Below are positions 12,004 to 19,865 of a stretch of DNA of 64,000 nucleotides, piece after piece. The DNA is from a virus: IMG/VR virus record IMGVR_UViG_3300007511_000004, positions 82,557 to 146,556 of that record. One strand, written 5' to 3'. Within the stretch, counting starts at the first letter, position 1. Each line of letters starts with the position of its first letter. Position numbers and translations under genes: made by a program. A model generated the notes under the pieces. The model searched no databases and had not been told where the DNA came from. It worked only from the letters and a program-made list of their open reading frames with translations.

Positions 12004-12433
12004 GTGGGATACTCGTTATTTGAAATTGGCGAAGGAAGTCTCTACCTGGTCTAAAGATCCTTCGACCCAGATTGGAGCAGTAGCCGTCGGGAATAAGGGC
12101 GAAATATTATCGACCGGATATAACGGCTTCCCTCGCCACATTGCCGATCTTGATGAAAGATATGAAGATAGAGATATCAAATATAAATACATCGTCCATG
12201 CAGAGGCTAATTGCATATATAATGCTACATATAATGGGGTATCTCTAAGAGACAGCACCATGTACGTCTACGGTCTCCCCTGCTGTTCCGAATGTGGAAA
12301 GGCCATTATCCAAGTCGGGGTTAAACGAGTGGTCATGCACGGGGATCCTAATAATGATAGGTGGCGGGAATCTACGGAACGCACGCTAGGAATGTTTAAA
12401 GAAGCACTGATTGAATGGGAGTTTGATAATTGA
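11996..12433 (+). CDS. cd: dCMP deaminase
   Basis: SKDPSTQIGA, TGYNG, HAEAN, PCC.EC. Confidence 0.92.
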   Translation: MDKWDTRYLKLAKEVSTWSKDPSTQIGAVAVGNKGEILSTGYNGFPRHIADLDERYEDRDIKYKYIVHAEANCIYNATYNGVSLRDSTMYVYGLPCCSECGKAIIQVGVKRVVMHGDPNNDRWRESTERTLGMFKEALIEWEFDN

Positions 12434-13272
12434 AACGGATTATTATTGTCGGTCACGGCTTTGTTGGGAAGGCAGTAGATTACGGGTTTACGAATCCACA
12501 GGTAGAGAAGATCATAATTGATCCGAAATATGGTACAGATCTTTCCGACCTAAGCAATCTTATTGAAACAGACGCAATATTTGTCTGCTTACCTACCCCC
12601 ATGGATAAGGATGGATCGATCGATAGCGAAATCCTTGAATCGACATTGACCCGTCTTAAGGGTCGGATCACTGGTCTTGATAGACCTAAGGTAATTGTTA
12701 AATCAACCGTGACTCCCGACGTGCTCAAGCGGGTCTACTTCCGAGGCTTAGTTTATAATCCGGAATTCCTGACGGAGCGATCTGCAAATGAACAATTCAT
12801 CAATCCTACTATGCACATTTTAGGTGGCAGACGCGAAGATACTGAAGTGGTAGAGAAGCTAATTAATGAATATTCTCTTTGTAGCCCCGCACCCGTTTAC
12901 CATATGTCTATGTCAGAGGCGTCATTTGTTAAATATGGCATCAACGCCTTCCTTGCACTTAAGGTCCTTTTCTTCAATCAGTTGTATGATGTCGTGAATG
13001 ACGATGATGATAGTAATTTCGCACGCGTCATAAAAGCCATAGGTTCTGATCCGCGGATCGGCCACAGTCACACAAAGGTGCCGGGTTTTGATGGTAAACA
13101 AGGATTCGGTGGTGCATGTTTTCCCAAGGACATTTCTGCATTAAATACCTTCTCAGAGAGGTTTACAATCCTCGAAGAATGTGTTACAATAAACAATAAC
13201 TATCGTAAGAACTATGTATTAGACGATAGAGAGAAATCACAAAATATTTCATACAGGGAAACCAATAAATGA
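12430..13272 (+). CDS. nucleotide-sugar (UDP-glucose-like) 6-dehydrogenase, short form
   Basis: GHGFVG, CLPTP, KSTV, NPEFL, GFGGACFPKD. Confidence 0.85.
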   Translation: MKRIIIVGHGFVGKAVDYGFTNPQVEKIIIDPKYGTDLSDLSNLIETDAIFVCLPTPMDKDGSIDSEILESTLTRLKGRITGLDRPKVIVKSTVTPDVLKRVYFRGLVYNPEFLTERSANEQFINPTMHILGGRREDTEVVEKLINEYSLCSPAPVYHMSMSEASFVKYGINAFLALKVLFFNQLYDVVNDDDDSNFARVIKAIGSDPRIGHSHTKVPGFDGKQGFGGACFPKDISALNTFSERFTILEECVTINNNYRKNYVLDDREKSQNISYRETNK

Positions 13273-14180
13273 GTATTATGCAAAAGTTAAAGAAGAATAG
13301 TAGAGTTAAGTCCACCTCTATTCTATCCGAATCCAAATTCTTTAATGAAAAGGACATGATTACAACTGATGTTCCGATGATCAACGTCGCGTTATCAGGT
13401 GCAGTTGATGGTGGCCTATCATCAGGTCTTACGGTCCTTGCTGGTCCATCTAAGCACTTTAAAACTTCATTTGCTTTGTTAATGGCATCTGCATACCTGA
13501 AAAAATACGATGATGCGGTTATCCTATTCTACGATTCAGAATTCGGTTCGCCCCAATCTTACTTTGAACAGTTTGATATTGATACATCCCGAGTACTCCA
13601 TACGCCAATTACTAACGTCGAGGAACTCAAATTTGATATGATCCATCAGCTCGAAAGTCTCGAGCGAGGGGATAAGGTTGTTGTTGTCATTGACTCGATA
13701 GGCAACCTCGCATCTAAGAAGGAACTAGATGATGCTCTGAGTGAGAAATCAGTAGCAGATATGAGCCGCGCAAAAGCTCTTAAGGGGCTATTCCGAATGG
13801 CAACCCCTTATCTAACCATGAAGAACATTCCGATGCTTGCGATTAACCACACGTATCAAACCCTAGAATTATTTAGCAAAGCGGTAGTATCCGGTGGTTG
13901 TGTTGTCGAAGGAACTAAGATTCAAACGCAACGTGGTCTAATTGAAATTCAAGATGTGCGTGAAGATGACATTATCATTACCCAATACGGCGATAAAGAA
14001 GTCAAAGCGTTATGGAATCCAGATACACTTGAAGAAGGCAATCCTGAGTGTTATGAGATTGAATTTGAAGATGGGTACAAGGTAACCTGTTCAGATAAAC
14101 ACAAGTTCATCGTAAATGGGGAATGGGTTGCTGCTAAAGACTTGGTAGAAGATATGGATTGTGAAACCTTGAAATCTTAA
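13269..14180 (+). CDS. uvsX: UvsX recombinase N-extein (210 aa) fused to N-terminal half of a split intein (93 aa, 13899-14177)
   Basis: AGPSKHFKT, YDSEFG, IDSIGNLAS, DMSRAK; after VVSGG the sequence switches to intein block A (CVVEGTKIQT) and block B (VTCSDKHKF), then a stop. Confidence 0.93.
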   Translation: MSIMQKLKKNSRVKSTSILSESKFFNEKDMITTDVPMINVALSGAVDGGLSSGLTVLAGPSKHFKTSFALLMASAYLKKYDDAVILFYDSEFGSPQSYFEQFDIDTSRVLHTPITNVEELKFDMIHQLESLERGDKVVVVIDSIGNLASKKELDDALSEKSVADMSRAKALKGLFRMATPYLTMKNIPMLAINHTYQTLELFSKAVVSGGCVVEGTKIQTQRGLIEIQDVREDDIIITQYGDKEVKALWNPDTLEEGNPECYEIEFEDGYKVTCSDKHKFIVNGEWVAAKDLVEDMDCETLKS

Positions 14181-14184
14181 TTTG

Positions 14185-14192
14185 TATAAATA
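14185..14192 (+). promoter_or_regulatory. late promoter for the homing endonuclease
   Basis: TATAAATA in the 48-bp gap after the N-intein stop. Confidence 0.75.
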
Positions 14193-14228
14193 TTATCAGC
14201 AGTATAATACATAACCTGAGAGGCTGAT

Positions 14229-15059
14229 ATGAATTACAAATTACATTACGATAGATTAATAAGCAATGCAAGGTTGCGATTAAACGTGGACCAGTATACG
14301 GAAAAGCACCATATTATACCTAAGTGTATGGGTGGTGGTGATACCCCTGATAATCTGGTTAGATTAACAGCCAAGGAGCATTTCGTTGCACATCACCTAC
14401 TATGGAAAGAATACCGAACACCTGAATTGGCTCATGCCTGGTTTATGATGCTTCGGTGTGACCCTAACCAGAAAAGAGAATTTACAGCCAAACAGCATGA
14501 GGCTGCAACAATCGCGCATGTTGAAGTTCTGAGAAAAACTATGGTTGGTTCGGGTAATCATTTTTATGGAAGAAAGCATACTGAAGCGGCTAAGGCTAAA
14601 ATCAGTAGAGCCAATACAGGTAAGGCTCATACCCAAGAGTTTAGAGATGCATACTCCAAGAGATTCAAAGGTATACCTAAGACCCCAGAACATCGAGCTA
14701 AGATAGGTCGTACCGGACTTTCTATGTATCAGAACATAGAAACTGGTGAAATTGTAAGAGTAGCTAAAGGGACCTTAGACGAAACCTTGTGGGTTAACCC
14801 TAGGAAATTGAAGCCAGAAGCCCGACGCAAATGCACTTACTGTGATTTTATATCCACAGAATCCAATCTAAAGATGTGGCATGATGGTAATTGTCGGTGG
14901 AAAGATACTGGAATATATGTTAAGCCATCAAGTATAAGAACCACTAATAGGAAACGAATACCAGTTACAATAGACGGAGTACAATACAAATCGATTAACG
15001 CGGCCGCGAAGGCATTAGGAGTGAGTAAATATGAAATCAAAAAACTGGCTGCCATTTGA
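14229..15059 (+). mobile_element. free-standing HNH homing endonuclease (MobE-like) with NUMOD3-like DNA-binding repeats
   Basis: EKHHIIPKCMGG.D...NLV.LTA.EH..AH; H/KT.E.K.KI repeats; C-terminal IDGV.Y.SI..AAKALG. Confidence 0.85.
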
Positions 15060-15207
15060 GTCATTGGATAATGAACAATATATCCGTTACTTAGAACGGG
15101 CTGAAATGTTTCATGAAAAAGATTTACATACCGATAAAACTGTGATACAATTAGCTAATGTATTATATGAAAAGGAGATGGCTAAAAATGAAAGTAAAAT
15201 CAATTAA
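15031..15207 (+). CDS. 58-aa hypothetical protein between the endonuclease and the C-intein (not in ORF track)
   Basis: AGGAG RBS, MKSKNWLPFESLDNEQYIRYLERAEMF...SKIN*; overlaps both neighbours. Confidence 0.55.
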   Translation: MKSKNWLPFESLDNEQYIRYLERAEMFHEKDLHTDKTVIQLANVLYEKEMAKNESKIN

Positions 15208-15310
15208 TAATGTAGGTCGTAAACCTGTTTACGATCTTTCTGTTAATAGTAATAATTACGATGAACAGCAATACGTGCTTGAAAATGGTGTAGTAACACA
15301 TAACACGGGT
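15188..15310 (+). CDS. uvsX: exon 1 of the uvsX C-part: C-terminal split-intein half (39 aa) plus extein Thr-Gly
   Basis: AGGAG RBS; MKVKSINNVGRKPVYDLSV...YVLENGVVTHN|TG = intein blocks F/G ending His-Asn with +1 Thr. Confidence 0.92.
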
Positions 15311-15554
15311 AAATAAGTGCCCCTTAATATGGTAACATATTTCGAAAACTCCTCTAATTGCTGGGAACTCCTACGGGACAATCAGCAGCCAAGACCGAAA
15401 GGTAAGGTTCAACGACTAGTCGAAAGACGTACACTCAAGTGAGTGGAAATGGGGAGCAACCTAATTAGGTTGAAGATATAGTCTGATCTATATGGTAACA
15501 TATAGCTGGGTAGAGTCCCGGGGTAAGATTAACGACCTTATCTGAACATAAATG
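15311..15554 (+). ncRNA. ORF-less group I self-splicing intron (244 nt) in uvsX
   Basis: P AATTGCTGGGAACTCC, Q AATCAGCAGCC, R GTTCAACGACTA, S AAGATATAGTCT; P1 U15310.G15319; P3 ctcctc/ggggag; P7 gacta/tagtc; terminal G; removal restores TG-IYYSA. Confidence 0.92.
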
Positions 15555-15968
15555 ATTTACTACTCGGCCTCCAATATCTGGATCCTGGGACGACAGCAAG
15601 ATAAACAAGGTACTGAAATAAAAGGATATCATTTTGTCATTAATGTCGAAAAATCACGATACGTCAAAGAGAAATCAAAGATACCGATCTCAGTTAGTTG
15701 GGAAGGTGGGGTTCAGCGTTGGTCTGGTCTCCTTGAAGTTGCTCTTGCGGGTAATTATGTTGCAAAGCCGTCTAATGGATGGTACCAATATGTTGACCAA
15801 GAAACTGGGGAGCTTGTTGGAACAAAATGTCGAGAAAAGGAAACGCTCAATGAAAGCTTCTGGACGCCAATCCTAGAAAAGACTGATTTTAAAGAATTCA
15901 TTCGAAAGCAATATCAGATTGGTCATACAGCAATCGTTGAAATGGATAAGATTGTGGTAGAGGGATGA
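15555..15968 (+). CDS. uvsX: exon 2 of the uvsX C-part (C-extein)
   Basis: IYYSASNIWILGRQQDK.G.EI.GY.F.INVEKSR.VKEKSK...GG...WSGLL..AL...V.KP.NGWY matches the UvsX C-terminal domain. Confidence 0.93.
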   Translation: MYYSASNIWILGRQQDKQGTEIKGYHFVINVEKSRYVKEKSKIPISVSWEGGVQRWSGLLEVALAGNYVAKPSNGWYQYVDQETGELVGTKCREKETLNESFWTPILEKTDFKEFIRKQYQIGHTAIVEMDKIVVEG

Positions 15969-16231
15969 TAGAGAATACCGACTATAGATTAATCCCGGAT
16001 CAGGGTGATGGAGATGACACTTGGCAGGTCCGAATCATATCTGGGGATTTTGTAGAGACCGTAATTAAGTATGGGAAATTAGCTCTAAAGGATGACGGTC
16101 TTATGACCTTTGACTTTGATGTCGTTGTGTCACCCATCGAGGGACTAAATTCTGAAGACGGGGGTTTACAAACGGCGGCAAAAGAGATACTATTATCGAT
16201 AATGGAAAGAGTATTTGAAGAAAAAGGGTAA
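15965..16231 (+). CDS. gp40-like head vertex assembly chaperone (positional)
   Basis: small acidic ORF between uvsX and gene 41, as in T4. Confidence 0.45.
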   Translation: MIENTDYRLIPDQGDGDDTWQVRIISGDFVETVIKYGKLALKDDGLMTFDFDVVVSPIEGLNSEDGGLQTAAKEILLSIMERVFEEKG

Positions 16232-16233
16232 CT

Positions 16234-17598
16234 ATGAACATTAATCTTGAGCAGACAATCCTCCGGAATTTGCTAGTAAACGAGAAATATACACGTAAGG
16301 TTCTCCCTTATATTAGTCCCGAATATTTTGAGGGCACATATAAAACACTATATCATGAGGTAGGTAAATTTGTAGCGAAATATAATAAATTACCTACTTT
16401 AGAATCATTTAAAATCCAGGTCGACGATGCAAGCATGAGCGATGAACAATATCGCCATGCGGTAGAGATCCTACCAGCTTTATTTGATAAAGAGGAAGTA
16501 GACCAAGAATGGCTTTTAGACACTACTGAAAAATGGTGTCAGGATCGCGCGGTATTCAATGCTGTAATGGAGTCAATTACGATCATTGACGGTAAGCACC
16601 AAACTCTTACTAAAAATGCTCTTCCAGAAATCCTCAGTAAGGCACTGGGCGTATCATTCGACTCTAATGTGGGTCACGATTACCTAGAGAATTGGCTAAC
16701 TCGATACGATTTCTATCACACCCAAGAATCCCGTATCCCATTTGATCTGGATATGTTAAATAAGATTACTAAGGGCGGTTTACCAAATAAAACCCTTAAT
16801 ATAATACTTGCGGGCACTGGAACAGGTAAATCCCTATTCATGTGTCACCAGGCAGCGGCAGCTCTTTCCGAAGGTTATAACGTACTCTATATTACTATGG
16901 AGATGGCAGAAGAACGCATCGCTGAACGCATTGATGCTAATCTAATGGATATCCCGATCGATCAGCTTGAAAATATGTCTAAGAATATGTTCTCCGAAAA
17001 AGTTGCACATATCTCTAAAAAGACCACGGGTAAATTAATTGTAAAAGAGTATCCGACTGGACAAGCTAATAGCTCACACTTCCGGGCACTGATAAACGAA
17101 CTTAAGTTGAAGAAGACGTTTAAACCTAATATCATCTTTATTGACTATCTAAATATCTGTGCTTCATCGAGGATGAAGACTATGGGAGGATCCATCAATT
17201 CCTATACATACATTAAGGCAATTGCGGAAGAACTACGAGGGTTGGCGGTTGAATTTGACGTTCCGATCGTATCTGCAACTCAAACGACGCGTTCGGGTTA
17301 TTCGAATCAGGATATTGGGCTTGAGGATACCTCGGAGTCTTTTGGACTACCCGCTACAGCAGACCTCATGTTCGCACTCGTCTCAACCGAAGAACTTGAA
17401 GCCCAAGGTCAAATAGCGGTCAAACAACTAAAGAATCGATATAATGATCCCACTAAGTTCAAACGATTTGTGCTTGGGGTAGATCGGAGTAAGATGAGAT
17501 TGTATGATGTAGATGTAGATGATCAGGGGTTAGTGGACGATACGCCAGCCTTCGATAAAAGTGAAATGAATAATCGATTCAAAGATTTTAAACTATAG
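16234..17598 (+). CDS. 41: replicative DNA helicase (T4 gp41-like)
   Basis: AGTGTGKS, ITMEMAEE, IFIDYLNIC, SATQTTR, SESFGLPATAD, KQLKNRY. Confidence 0.96.
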   Translation: MNINLEQTILRNLLVNEKYTRKVLPYISPEYFEGTYKTLYHEVGKFVAKYNKLPTLESFKIQVDDASMSDEQYRHAVEILPALFDKEEVDQEWLLDTTEKWCQDRAVFNAVMESITIIDGKHQTLTKNALPEILSKALGVSFDSNVGHDYLENWLTRYDFYHTQESRIPFDLDMLNKITKGGLPNKTLNIILAGTGTGKSLFMCHQAAAALSEGYNVLYITMEMAEERIAERIDANLMDIPIDQLENMSKNMFSEKVAHISKKTTGKLIVKEYPTGQANSSHFRALINELKLKKTFKPNIIFIDYLNICASSRMKTMGGSINSYTYIKAIAEELRGLAVEFDVPIVSATQTTRSGYSNQDIGLEDTSESFGLPATADLMFALVSTEELEAQGQIAVKQLKNRYNDPTKFKRFVLGVDRSKMRLYDVDVDDQGLVDDTPAFDKSEMNNRFKDFKL

Positions 17599-17607
17599 GA
17601 GTAAATA

Positions 17608-17838
17608 ATGCAAAATACTAGTAACGCAATCCGTAAACTGGTTCGACAGGAATATCTGAAATCCCCGGATCGTATCATCAACCAGTTAAAGGCTTCTAGG
17701 AAAGGTAAGCGGACCATGGTGACTATTGAGAACCCGAATAAAGAGGAAACCAACCGCCCCTTTATCCGGATTGAGGGTAAGGCCTGGTTTAAGTCCCAGA
17801 AGAAGACCAATCAAATTACTGTAAAGGAGGCAGAATGA
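17608..17838 (+). CDS. hypothetical basic protein
   Basis: AGGAG RBS, ORF in operon. Confidence 0.6.
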   Translation: MQNTSNAIRKLVRQEYLKSPDRIINQLKASRKGKRTMVTIENPNKEETNRPFIRIEGKAWFKSQKKTNQITVKEAE

Positions 17839-18506
17839 AAGCGCGTCTAGTCGGGTATACCCAACCCACCCTAGAATTCGAGAATGAATTTCGGAACGTC
17901 CAGGATCTGATCGCTTTCTGTGCACGGGTCTCAAATCCTGCCAATCAGTTTAATAATGAGACCGGCAAGAAGCTTATTGAGTATCTGATTAAGCATAAAC
18001 ATTGGTCACCCCTTGAAATGGCGAGTGCAACCCTGGAAGTTGAAACCACTCGGGATATTGCTCGACAGCTTATCCGACATAGATCATTTTCGTTTCAGGA
18101 GTTCTCACAGCGCTATGCTGATCCGAATGACCTAGAGGAATCATTTGTATTGAGGGAAGCGCGACTCCAGGATCCTAAGAATCGTCAAAACTCTATAGAT
18201 AATGATGATGAGAAATTGCAGAAAGGCTGGCACTTTAAACAACAGCAGATTATCCATGAATGCAAGTTAGCATACAAATGGGCAATCGAAAATGGTATCG
18301 CAAAGGAACAGGCGCGAGCAGTACTTCCGGAAGGCAATACAGTATCTAAATTGTATGTCAATGGTACACTCAGATCCTGGGTGCATTATATCGAATTACG
18401 GACGGGTAACGGAACGCAAAAAGAGCACATTGAGCTAGCTAGAGAGTGCGCAATTGCAATCGCCCGCTGTTTCCCTATGGTAGAAGGATTTACAGAGAAT
18501 GGGTAA
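17835..18506 (+). CDS. thyX: flavin-dependent thymidylate synthase
   Basis: ARVS, HWSPLE, RQLIRHRSFSFQEFSQRY, EQARAVLP, TQKEH. Confidence 0.95.
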   Translation: MKARLVGYTQPTLEFENEFRNVQDLIAFCARVSNPANQFNNETGKKLIEYLIKHKHWSPLEMASATLEVETTRDIARQLIRHRSFSFQEFSQRYADPNDLEESFVLREARLQDPKNRQNSIDNDDEKLQKGWHFKQQQIIHECKLAYKWAIENGIAKEQARAVLPEGNTVSKLYVNGTLRSWVHYIELRTGNGTQKEHIELARECAIAIARCFPMVEGFTENG

Positions 18507-18714
18507 AAAACTTTCAACTTACTACGCCGAACCAAACCCTCCAGATAATGGTTGTGCGGAGGTTCATGTTGATTTCCGACATGAGAGCCTTTATATTAAA
18601 TATTATGATGATCAGGGGAAGCTATTTTTCACTGAAGAATTCCCGGGTAAATCTCTTAGGTATGTAGAAGATGCAGCAGAAAATTGGGCATTAGGGATAA
18701 AAAAGTTGGATTAG
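18499..18714 (+). CDS. hypothetical protein
   Basis: ORF with KSL.YVEDAAENW. Confidence 0.55.
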   Translation: MGKKLSTYYAEPNPPDNGCAEVHVDFRHESLYIKYYDDQGKLFFTEEFPGKSLRYVEDAAENWALGIKKLD

Positions 18715-18779
18715 GGGGTTTACAAACAATTCGTAAGATGGTATAGTAATTCATAATCAATAATCAATGAGGCAGGATT

Positions 18780-19262
18780 ATGAAGATAGATTTACGGAAC
18801 GTGGTATCCTTTGCTCTTACTGGTACAGTAGTAGCTCTAGGATCCCTTGCCGCCCAAGATAGAATGGCTTCGGCCGCCACTGAAAGAAATTGTTTGGCTA
18901 TGAACGTCTATCACGAAGCACGTGGTGAAAGCGTGATTGGTCAGATTGCCGTAGCCCAAGTGGTTATGAATCGGGTGGATCACAATTATTTTCCTGATAC
19001 AGTATGTGATGTAGTTTATCAAGATCATCAATTCTCTTGGACTCAGGATAATATTAGCGATACTACTAGTGATACTTTTGCTTGGAATCTTGCCAAGGAT
19101 ATTGCTATTACCGTATACGCGCGAGAAGAGGATGATCCTACATCCGGCGCCCTTTTCTACCATGCGGATTATATTGATACCCCACACTGGGCTAAACAAA
19201 TGGAAACCACACTCCGTGAAGAGACTCATATCTTCTATTCATGGGATGGGGTTTGGGATTAA
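18780..19262 (+). CDS. SleB-like cell wall hydrolase (Hydrolase_2)
   Basis: signal peptide, CLA.NVYHEARGE...GQ.AVAQVV.NRV...FP.T.C.VV.Q..QFSW, GALFYHA. Confidence 0.9.
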   Translation: MKIDLRNVVSFALTGTVVALGSLAAQDRMASAATERNCLAMNVYHEARGESVIGQIAVAQVVMNRVDHNYFPDTVCDVVYQDHQFSWTQDNISDTTSDTFAWNLAKDIAITVYAREEDDPTSGALFYHADYIDTPHWAKQMETTLREETHIFYSWDGVWD

Positions 19263-19280
19263 AATTAATAAGGACATAAA

Positions 19281-19865
19281 ATGAAAATGCTTCCGAAGAT
19301 TCTAGTAGTTGGTCATGGCCGACATGGTAAAGATAGCGTGGCTGAGATCCTCCAAATGTTCTATGGGATGACCTTTAGAGGATCAAGTGAGTTTTGTGCT
19401 GAGACTGTATGCTTTCCCGCAATGAAGGCCGAATATGGTTATAAAGATTATATGGAGTGTTTTGATGATCGCCATAATCATCGATCGGAGTGGTATGATC
19501 TTATCTCGCAATATTGTGCTGAAGATCCAACCCGGCTAGGTCGTGAAATCTTTAAGGTATCGGATGTCTACTGCGGACTTCGGAATAAAAGAGAATTCCA
19601 TGCACTGAAAAATGCAGGAGTATTTGATATTGCGCTATGGGTAGATCGATCCGATCATCTACCACCAGAAGATAGGGCGAGTAATACTATTGAACCTTGG
19701 ATGGCAGATTTTGTCATTGATAATAATGGCTCCAGGGATGATCTAACCCTTGCAGTGAAACAACTTATGGATAACCTATTGGGTCGAAATAGTCCCGAAG
19801 TATCTAATATGTCACATCACCAAGAATTTGCAACTGAAAATATCATTAACTTGGATAATATCTAA
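19281..19865 (+). CDS. deoxynucleoside monophosphate kinase-like protein
   Basis: N-terminal P-loop GHGRHGKD, GLR...EF, IDNNGS. Confidence 0.65.
   Translation: MKMLPKILVVGHGRHGKDSVAEILQMFYGMTFRGSSEFCAETVCFPAMKAEYGYKDYMECFDDRHNHRSEWYDLISQYCAEDPTRLGREIFKVSDVYCGLRNKREFHALKNAGVFDIALWVDRSDHLPPEDRASNTIEPWMADFVIDNNGSRDDLTLAVKQLMDNLLGRNSPEVSNMSHHQEFATENIINLDNI

Follow-up and report, generated by a model that had tools for sequence, protein, structure and literature searches.

Organization of the broken uvsX locus

The uvsX gene considered here lies in a 64,000-nucleotide (nt) stretch of viral DNA, referred to below as the window, which covers positions 82,557 to 146,556 of IMG/VR virus record IMGVR_UViG_3300007511_000004. 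The record is the complete 146,556-bp genome of an uncultured T4-like phage with terminal repeats, in which a genome-wide check found uvsX as the only RecA-like gene; the only group I intron of the record also lies in uvsX. Analysis of the locus confirms that three selfish elements, namely a split intein, an HNH homing-endonuclease gene, and a group I intron, interrupt uvsX at a single conserved loop. An earlier note, made from the letters of the window, had described the N-terminal part of UvsX, the N-intein, an HNH open reading frame (ORF), a 58-amino-acid ORF, the C-intein, and the intron, and every position given in it holds. The features, all numbered from the first letter of the window, are as follows.

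13269..13898, + strand: uvsX N-extein, 210 amino acids with C-terminal VVSGG, recognized as an ORF similar to the UvsX of phage C48C1
13899..14180, + strand: N-intein and stop codon; 93 amino acids (13899-14177) that start with Cys1 in CVVEG and include block B CSDKH; stop codon 14178-14180
14185-14192, + strand: TATAAATA, a T4-late-promoter-like sequence upstream of the HNH gene
14194-14200 / 14223-14229, + strand: hairpin covering the ribosome-binding site and the A of the HNH start codon
14229..15059, + strand: free-standing HNH homing-endonuclease gene, 276 amino acids with a NUMOD-type DNA-binding tail
15031..15207, + strand: 58-amino-acid ORF overlapping the HNH gene end and the C-intein start, a doubtful gene
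15173-15177, + strand: AGGAG ribosome-binding site, 10 nt before the ATG at 15188
15188-15304, + strand: C-intein, 39 amino acids with C-terminal VVTHN
15305..15310, + strand: micro-exon ACGGGT (Thr+1, Gly+2), six bases that double as the 5' strand of intron helix P1
15311..15554, + strand: ORF-less IA2-type group I intron, 244 nt
15555..15968, + strand: uvsX C-extein and stop codon, 137 amino acids starting IYYSA

The intein halves are separated by a 1007-nt spacer that contains the HNH gene, and they terminate and begin separate ORFs, as in naturally split inteins and fractured genes. The C half has its own start codon at 15188, and the ribosome-binding site that had been claimed for it is present as the AGGAG listed above.

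Split intein and reconstruction of UvsX

The intein assignment draws on profile matches, on a solved relative, and on conserved catalytic residues. The N-intein gives weak matches to Pfam Hint_2 and Intein_splicing, and the C-intein matches Intein_splicing at profile positions 122-155. In the intein hidden Markov model scan proposed in the earlier note, both halves in the window remain below the Pfam thresholds, but L008, a relative in which the intein is fused in frame, significantly matches the solved gp41-1 intein (PDB 6qaz, E = 1.3e-11). The contiguous L008 intein also matches DnaE inteins (E = 5e-8 to about 1e-7). The N-terminal Cys, the block B Ser and His, the C-terminal His-Asn, and the +1 nucleophile expected of an intein (HINT) domain are all present; C1, S65, and H68 are invariant across 19 N-half alleles, as are H38, N39, and the +1 Thr across 22 C-half alleles. 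Rough estimates of the ratio of nonsynonymous to synonymous substitution rates (dN/dS) are about 0.11 for the N-intein and about 0.08 for the C-intein.

The earlier claim that removing both elements yields a 349-amino-acid UvsX is borne out. Joining 13269-13898, 15305-15310, and 15555-15965 in silico gives a product of exactly this length, which aligns without gaps and with 75% identity to the uninterrupted 350-amino-acid UvsX of phage C48C1 (Kyanoviridae), the junction VSGGTGIYYSA being the same in both proteins. The N-extein shares 79% identity with residues 1-210 of C48C1 UvsX and scores 25.1 bits against Pfam RecA, slightly under the 27-bit cut-off, while the C-extein shares 68% identity with C48C1 and scores 49 bits against Pfam T4_UVSX_C (cut-off 27 bits). 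Colinearity with UvsX therefore extends over the full length, T4_UVSX_C domain included. In intron-bearing alleles, the C-extein is under purifying selection (dN/dS about 0.18). The ligated UvsX is predicted to be a protein of about 39 kDa with a junction peptide containing VVSGGTGIYYSA, and AVVSGGTGIYYSASNIWILGR is the peptide predicted for the trans-spliced form.

Group I intron

The 244-nt group I intron of the earlier note is confirmed both by its covariance-model score and by its exact absence from a closely related contig. Against Rfam RF00028, positions 15311-15554 score 103.8 bits (cut-off 50, E = 4e-27), and L083 has a homologous intron at this position with a score of 113.9 bits. The ends of the intron are fixed independently of any model, because IMG/VR contig L002 lacks exactly these positions.

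An IA2-type P1-P10 fold of 72 pairs was drawn by hand on an alignment of the intron from 10 alleles. In the window, it comprises P1 (15307-10/15319-22), P3 (15349-54/15451-56), P7 (15414-18/15479-83), and P10 (15314-18/15555-59, 5 bp), together with P7.1, P7.2, P8, P9, P9.1, and P9.2. The splice-site U.G pair is formed by U15310 and G15319, and the last intron base is G15554; this pair, the terminal G, and P10 are kept in 8-10 alleles. Standard pairing is found in 98.3% of the cells of the alignment, and 19 of the 72 pairs change on both sides, that is, in a compensatory manner, compared with 3.4 in shuffled alignments, none of 500 shuffles reaching the observed value. Controls in which the pairing partner was slid give 0-3 compensatory pairs. 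The hairpins P7.1 and P7.2, which define the IA2 subgroup, are present between P7 and P3' with three compensatory pairs, and three further such pairs set the P3 of the window apart from that of the other alleles.

The exon side of the 5' splice site is constrained as well. The Thr-Gly codons read ACGGGT in every intron-bearing allele and in none of 80 intron-less alleles. Just past the splice site, AAA or AAG followed by a TAA stop codon occurs in 10 of 10 intron alleles, and this early in-frame stop should bar ribosomes from the ribozyme core. The intron itself contains no ORF. A 33-mer from its core recurs without mismatch 31 times in other phage genes in IMG/VR, and its DNA is similar to the nrdB-intron regions of T4-like phages. 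Judged from its sequence, it is an ordinary IA2 phage intron.

Two minor observations concern intron structure and distribution. The P2 and P9 hairpins (window 15328-15341 and 15490-15503) share a 14-nt palindromic unit, ATATGGTAACATAT, with a GUAA loop. Four IMG/VR loci (L095, L097, L102, and L103) carry two to four related intron copies within a few kb, forming intron-dense phage genes.

Allele series and probable intron mobility

The allele survey covered 80 IMG/VR relatives and other loci; sampling was biased, and the numbers are counts rather than frequencies. Uninterrupted uvsX was found at 61 loci, a contiguous mini-intein at two (L008 and L009), a split intein with an endonuclease gene at 13, and a split intein with a spacer of 27-111 nt and no endonuclease gene at four (L016-L019). 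All three elements occur together in the window, L118, and L119. L115, L116, and L120 have the endonuclease gene and the intron, their N end being missing; in L122, which has the intron, the endonuclease gene is reduced to a remnant at the contig edge. L083 and L117 combine the split intein and the intron without an endonuclease gene; L121 ends just upstream of the C-intein, so this intron allele was left unclassed for the endonuclease gene. The nine assemblies other than the window that bear the homologous intron (L083 and L115 to L122) show 84-93% intron identity, and in all ten the insertion point is in phase 0, 6 nt past the C-intein. The survey of related uvsX genes for intermediate states, suggested in the earlier note, has thus yielded contiguous, split, endonuclease-less, and intron-positive and intron-negative forms, and this series at a single site shows stages of the gene-breaking model.

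An intron-only allele lacking the intein was found neither in the survey nor by DNA pattern in IMG/VR. Four junction or core DNA patterns returned no further intron-bearing allele from IMG/VR, and one such pattern returned none from prokaryote genomes. In a tree built from the N parts, four changes of intron state are required, and well-supported branches force at least two of them.

The most informative comparison is that between the window and contig L002, which are 99.7% identical over 7.1 kb (window 12069-19421). At the DNA level, L002 lacks the intron with the reading frame kept, and its junction reads ...CAT AAT ACA GGA ATT TAC.... To the left of the intron there are 11 differences, of which 8 fall in the last 151 nt and 5, all synonymous, in the last 19 nt; such clustering has a Poisson probability of about 1e-9. 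To the right, no difference occurs for 309 nt. Two of the five synonymous changes near the 5' splice site create P1 pairing, and the last 31 exon bases of the window are the same as in the intron-bearing allele L115. This pattern bears the signature of a recombination event that would have moved the intron together with a short 5' tract. The tract lies inside the C-intein coding region, and therefore the donor or the recipient was itself intein-bearing. The intron is accordingly inferred to be recent and mobile, its gain or loss resulting from recombination among intein-bearing alleles and accompanied by co-conversion of the 5' tract, and the 99.7%-identical pair captures one such recent gain or loss. 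Separately, 9 of the 12 right-flank differences from L002 lie within 28 nt (window 18845-18872), a cluster that suggests a second small recombination patch.

Proposed expression pathway

The reading favored here, held with a probability of about 85%, is that uvsX is a fractured gene in which a gp41-1-type intein has been split by an HNH gene and an IA2 intron has been added two codons downstream, so that its expression would involve two splicing steps. The gene anatomy and the need for both RNA and protein splicing, as put forward in the earlier note, are supported by homology to a solved intein, the catalytic residues, intron covariation, the L002 contig, the gapless UvsX, and the presence of a single RecA-like gene.

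In this pathway, a gp41-1-type intein would have entered between Gly210 and the Thr of the conserved GG|TG loop and then been split by the free-standing HNH gene, with the intron added later, two codons past the intein site. Translation of the first ORF would give the N half (UvsX 1-210 and the N-intein). The endonuclease gene would be silenced early by its start hairpin and probably expressed late, serving only its own spread. The intron would excise itself from the RNA, joining ACGGGU to AUUUAC, and the in-frame UAA two codons into the intron would keep ribosomes off the ribozyme. From its own ribosome-binding site, the spliced message would then be translated into C-intein-TG-UvsX(213-349). 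Finally, the intein halves would associate and trans-splice through Cys1, the block B Ser and His, the terminal His-Asn, and Thr+1, yielding the 349-amino-acid UvsX. UvsX thus appears to depend on a ribozyme and a trans-splicing intein acting 6 nt, or two codons, apart, which shows how far selfish elements can stack on one conserved site with an essential gene surviving.

Several points weigh against this reading. Both the RNA and the protein splicing of uvsX are deduced from DNA sequence, and the Pfam intein, HNH, and RecA matches in the window lie under their curated cut-offs. The dN/dS values given in this text are rough, dS exceeding 1.5 (saturation) in most pairs. The putative control region before the HNH gene, consisting of TATAAATA and the hairpin, is not significant in the window alone. 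It also cannot be told from the data whether the event separating the window from L002 was a gain or a loss of the intron.

Alternative explanations

Three other accounts of the locus were considered. The intein halves might no longer splice and serve only as interaction domains, in which case UvsX would function as two non-covalently associated pieces, as does the mobE-split NrdA of phage Aeh1; genes in pieces that work without splicing are indeed known from T4-like phages (PMC3045599). Against this stands the invariance of every splicing-chemistry residue in 19-22 diverged alleles. Moreover, the break falls within a conserved loop of the RecA fold, where about 130 extra residues would probably not be tolerated. 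The closest solved relative, gp41-1, is reportedly an active split intein, which also counts against a non-splicing state, and this account is considered quite unlikely. That the introns belong to a different gene or phage and were joined to a fractured uvsX during assembly is scarcely credible. Related introns are common in other phage genes, as the 31 exact matches of the 33-mer illustrate, but in ten assemblies, produced from separate samples by different pipelines (IMG/VR, Logan, ENA, and JGI), a homologous intron sits at one and the same phase-0 position, and the flanking exon bases pair with the guide sequence of the intron. An assembly chimera had been named in the earlier note as an outcome that would overturn its reading; with the same layout recurring in nine other assemblies, this outcome is not upheld.

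The intron might also be a dead insertion, with exon 2 either translated from an ATG at the 3' end of the intron or left untranslated as a decaying pseudogene. The last three bases of the intron do spell an ATG, which shares the reading frame of exon 2 and is retained in 8 of 8 complete alleles; gene callers annotate an ORF of 138-143 amino acids from it. No Shine-Dalgarno motif precedes this ATG, however, and a C-terminal fragment made from it would lack the C-intein and could not be joined to the N half. A dead insertion also sits poorly with the compensatory changes that maintain the full catalytic core, with the fixed exon codons of P1, and with purifying selection on the C-extein in intron-bearing alleles, and it is regarded as very improbable.

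Beyond the fractured-gene reading itself, the intron and the fractured intein could form one cooperating mobile unit that spreads by collaborative homing, with RNA and protein splicing coupled and UvsX output set by ribozyme efficiency. The coupling is proposed because P1 of the intron is built from the codons for intein positions +1 and +2. If this were true, the endonuclease encoded in the gap would cut intron-less or intein-less uvsX near GG|TG|IYY, and the intron would shield its carrier; unspliced RNA would give a 42-amino-acid C-intein-TGK peptide that could cap the N half. This extension is judged unlikely, though less so than the three accounts above.

Relation to known systems

Fractured genes were described by Dassa, London, Stoddard, Schueler-Furman and Pietrokovski in 2009 for eight types of host gene, uvsX not included (PMC2677866), and the same paper names uvsX only as a neighbor of gp41. 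The fractured genes reported there resemble the present locus in their phage setting, two same-strand ORFs, split intein, and free-standing endonuclease gene in the gap, as well as in the hairpin before the endonuclease gene, the separate translation signals of the C half, and the existence of endonuclease-less forms. Unlike uvsX here, none of those loci has a group I intron beside the intein site. The gp41-1 intein (PDB 6qaz and 6riz) is likewise similar in size and split point, has Ser in place of Thr in block B (CSEEH, compared with CSDKH in the uvsX intein of the window), and shares the THN end; it differs in its helicase host gene and in having Ser+1 rather than Thr+1, and the two inteins are only about 30% identical. 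Protein engineers may find a gp41-1-like split intein with Thr+1 of interest.

In GenBank, a homologous intein occupies the same GG|TG site of uvsX in about 25 cultured T4-like phages, with two ORFs and an endonuclease gene between them. Examples are Escherichia phage HY03 (NC_031047), Proteus phage Pm5461 (NC_028762), PM2, PspYZU05, ELT1, TG1, and Shewanella phage Thanatos-1. In Pm5461, for example, the N half reads MTGG|CVVAGTKI and the C half VVTHN|TGVMYSAD. The split uvsX of such phages is annotated merely as a RecA-like protein or recombinase, and their endonuclease types differ, that of Thanatos-1 being a GIY-YIG enzyme. The intron is absent from the approximately 25 cultured split-uvsX phages, and coverage of the query by any GenBank phage does not exceed 31%. 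Cultured coliphages with the same intein, such as HY03, offer a possible experimental system for the model and for collaboration between endonuclease and intron.

With respect to the intron, the T4-type IA2 introns of td, nrdB, and nrdD, and the collaborative homing of ORF-less introns with free-standing endonucleases, are reviewed in PMC2988022. These introns share with that of uvsX the same fold including P7.1 and P7.2, an early in-frame stop, a target at a conserved site, and co-conversion of flanking sequence. What differs is the host gene and the 5' exon, which in uvsX consists of a 6-nt remnant of the extein that follows intein codons. The nrdE gene of Bacillus phage SPbeta combines a group I intron and intein coding sequence in one phage gene (Lazarevic et al. 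1998; Derbyshire and Belfort 1998, 'Lightning strikes twice'; both as cited in PMC3653736), and it resembles uvsX as a single gene needing both RNA self-splicing and protein splicing. In uvsX, by comparison, the intein is split and the intron begins 6 nt past the intein site. The nrdE intein is reportedly contiguous and cis-splicing, with the two elements at separate sites.

Searches of full-text literature, in which few subscription journals are covered, found no description of a uvsX intein or of an intron beside a split intein, nor did they confirm the 'VidaL UvsX' split inteins reportedly present in Lake Vida metagenomes. The novelty suggested in the earlier note is therefore narrower than proposed: the tight stacking of intron and split intein is absent from the searchable literature, but an intein with an endonuclease gene in uvsX is already present in GenBank, and intron plus intein in one gene is known. 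What appears new, in the sense of not being found in that literature, is an intron two codons from a split-intein site, with one micro-exon supplying both the extein nucleophile and the P1 strand of the ribozyme.

Endonuclease gene and its candidate control region

The 276-amino-acid ORF between the intein halves matches phrog_655, annotated as 'homing endonuclease' (E = 3e-50). Its product has an HNH motif and a NUMOD-type DNA-binding region, with a Pfam NUMOD3 score of 25.2 bits (above the 20.4-bit cut-off), an HNH score of 17.9 bits (below the 21.4-bit cut-off), a NUMOD1 match also below its cut-off, and a weak match to the McrA HNH domain. The C-terminal half has a dN/dS of about 0.15. In several other alleles, only this half (about residues 129-276) is conserved, and the N-terminal part is an unrelated domain, phrog_7504. 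Compared with window 14229-15056, the genes at L118:2021-2890 and L119:890-1762 show 54-62% identity in the C-terminal DNA-binding half and have unrelated N-terminal parts; the phrog_7504-type nuclease head of L118 matches nothing in Pfam or PDB. It thus seems that one presumed nuclease domain was exchanged for another on a common DNA-binding and targeting module.

Upstream of this gene, the hairpin has a folding energy of -9.4 kcal/mol (z = -1.48), which is weak on its own, and TATAAATA is not enriched in the window (9 observed, 7 expected). Most alleles nevertheless have a hairpin over the endonuclease start, its sequence differing between alleles, and 8 of 14 contain TATAAATA. It is solely this comparison across alleles that supports the candidate control region, whose arrangement agrees with that of the control elements described in fractured genes (PMC2677866).

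The 58-amino-acid ORF was rejected as a functional gene. Its dN/dS is about 0.43, the homologous frame in L118 contains three stop codons, and no family match was found among Pfam and PHROG profiles.

Other broken genes

Two further genes appear to bear comparable breaks. In the same genome, outside the window, a split intein seems to interrupt the large terminase gene (L128, G000:C1 about 62300-64800). The N part of TerL ends in ...RQSGK with a short tail beginning with Cys and is followed by a 143-amino-acid T5orf172-like ORF; the C part opens with about 133 intein-like residues ending in ILSHN|S, after which TerL resumes. This arrangement resembles the atypically split TerL inteins reported from metagenomes. 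In the intron-bearing loci L121 (876-2679) and L117 (5787-7740), the next gene downstream of uvsX, encoding the gp41 helicase, is likewise broken; after it come a Hint-like ORF and a GIY-YIG gene in L121 and an HNH/NUMOD3 gene in L117. The broken gp41 of these two loci is the classic gp41 fractured gene.

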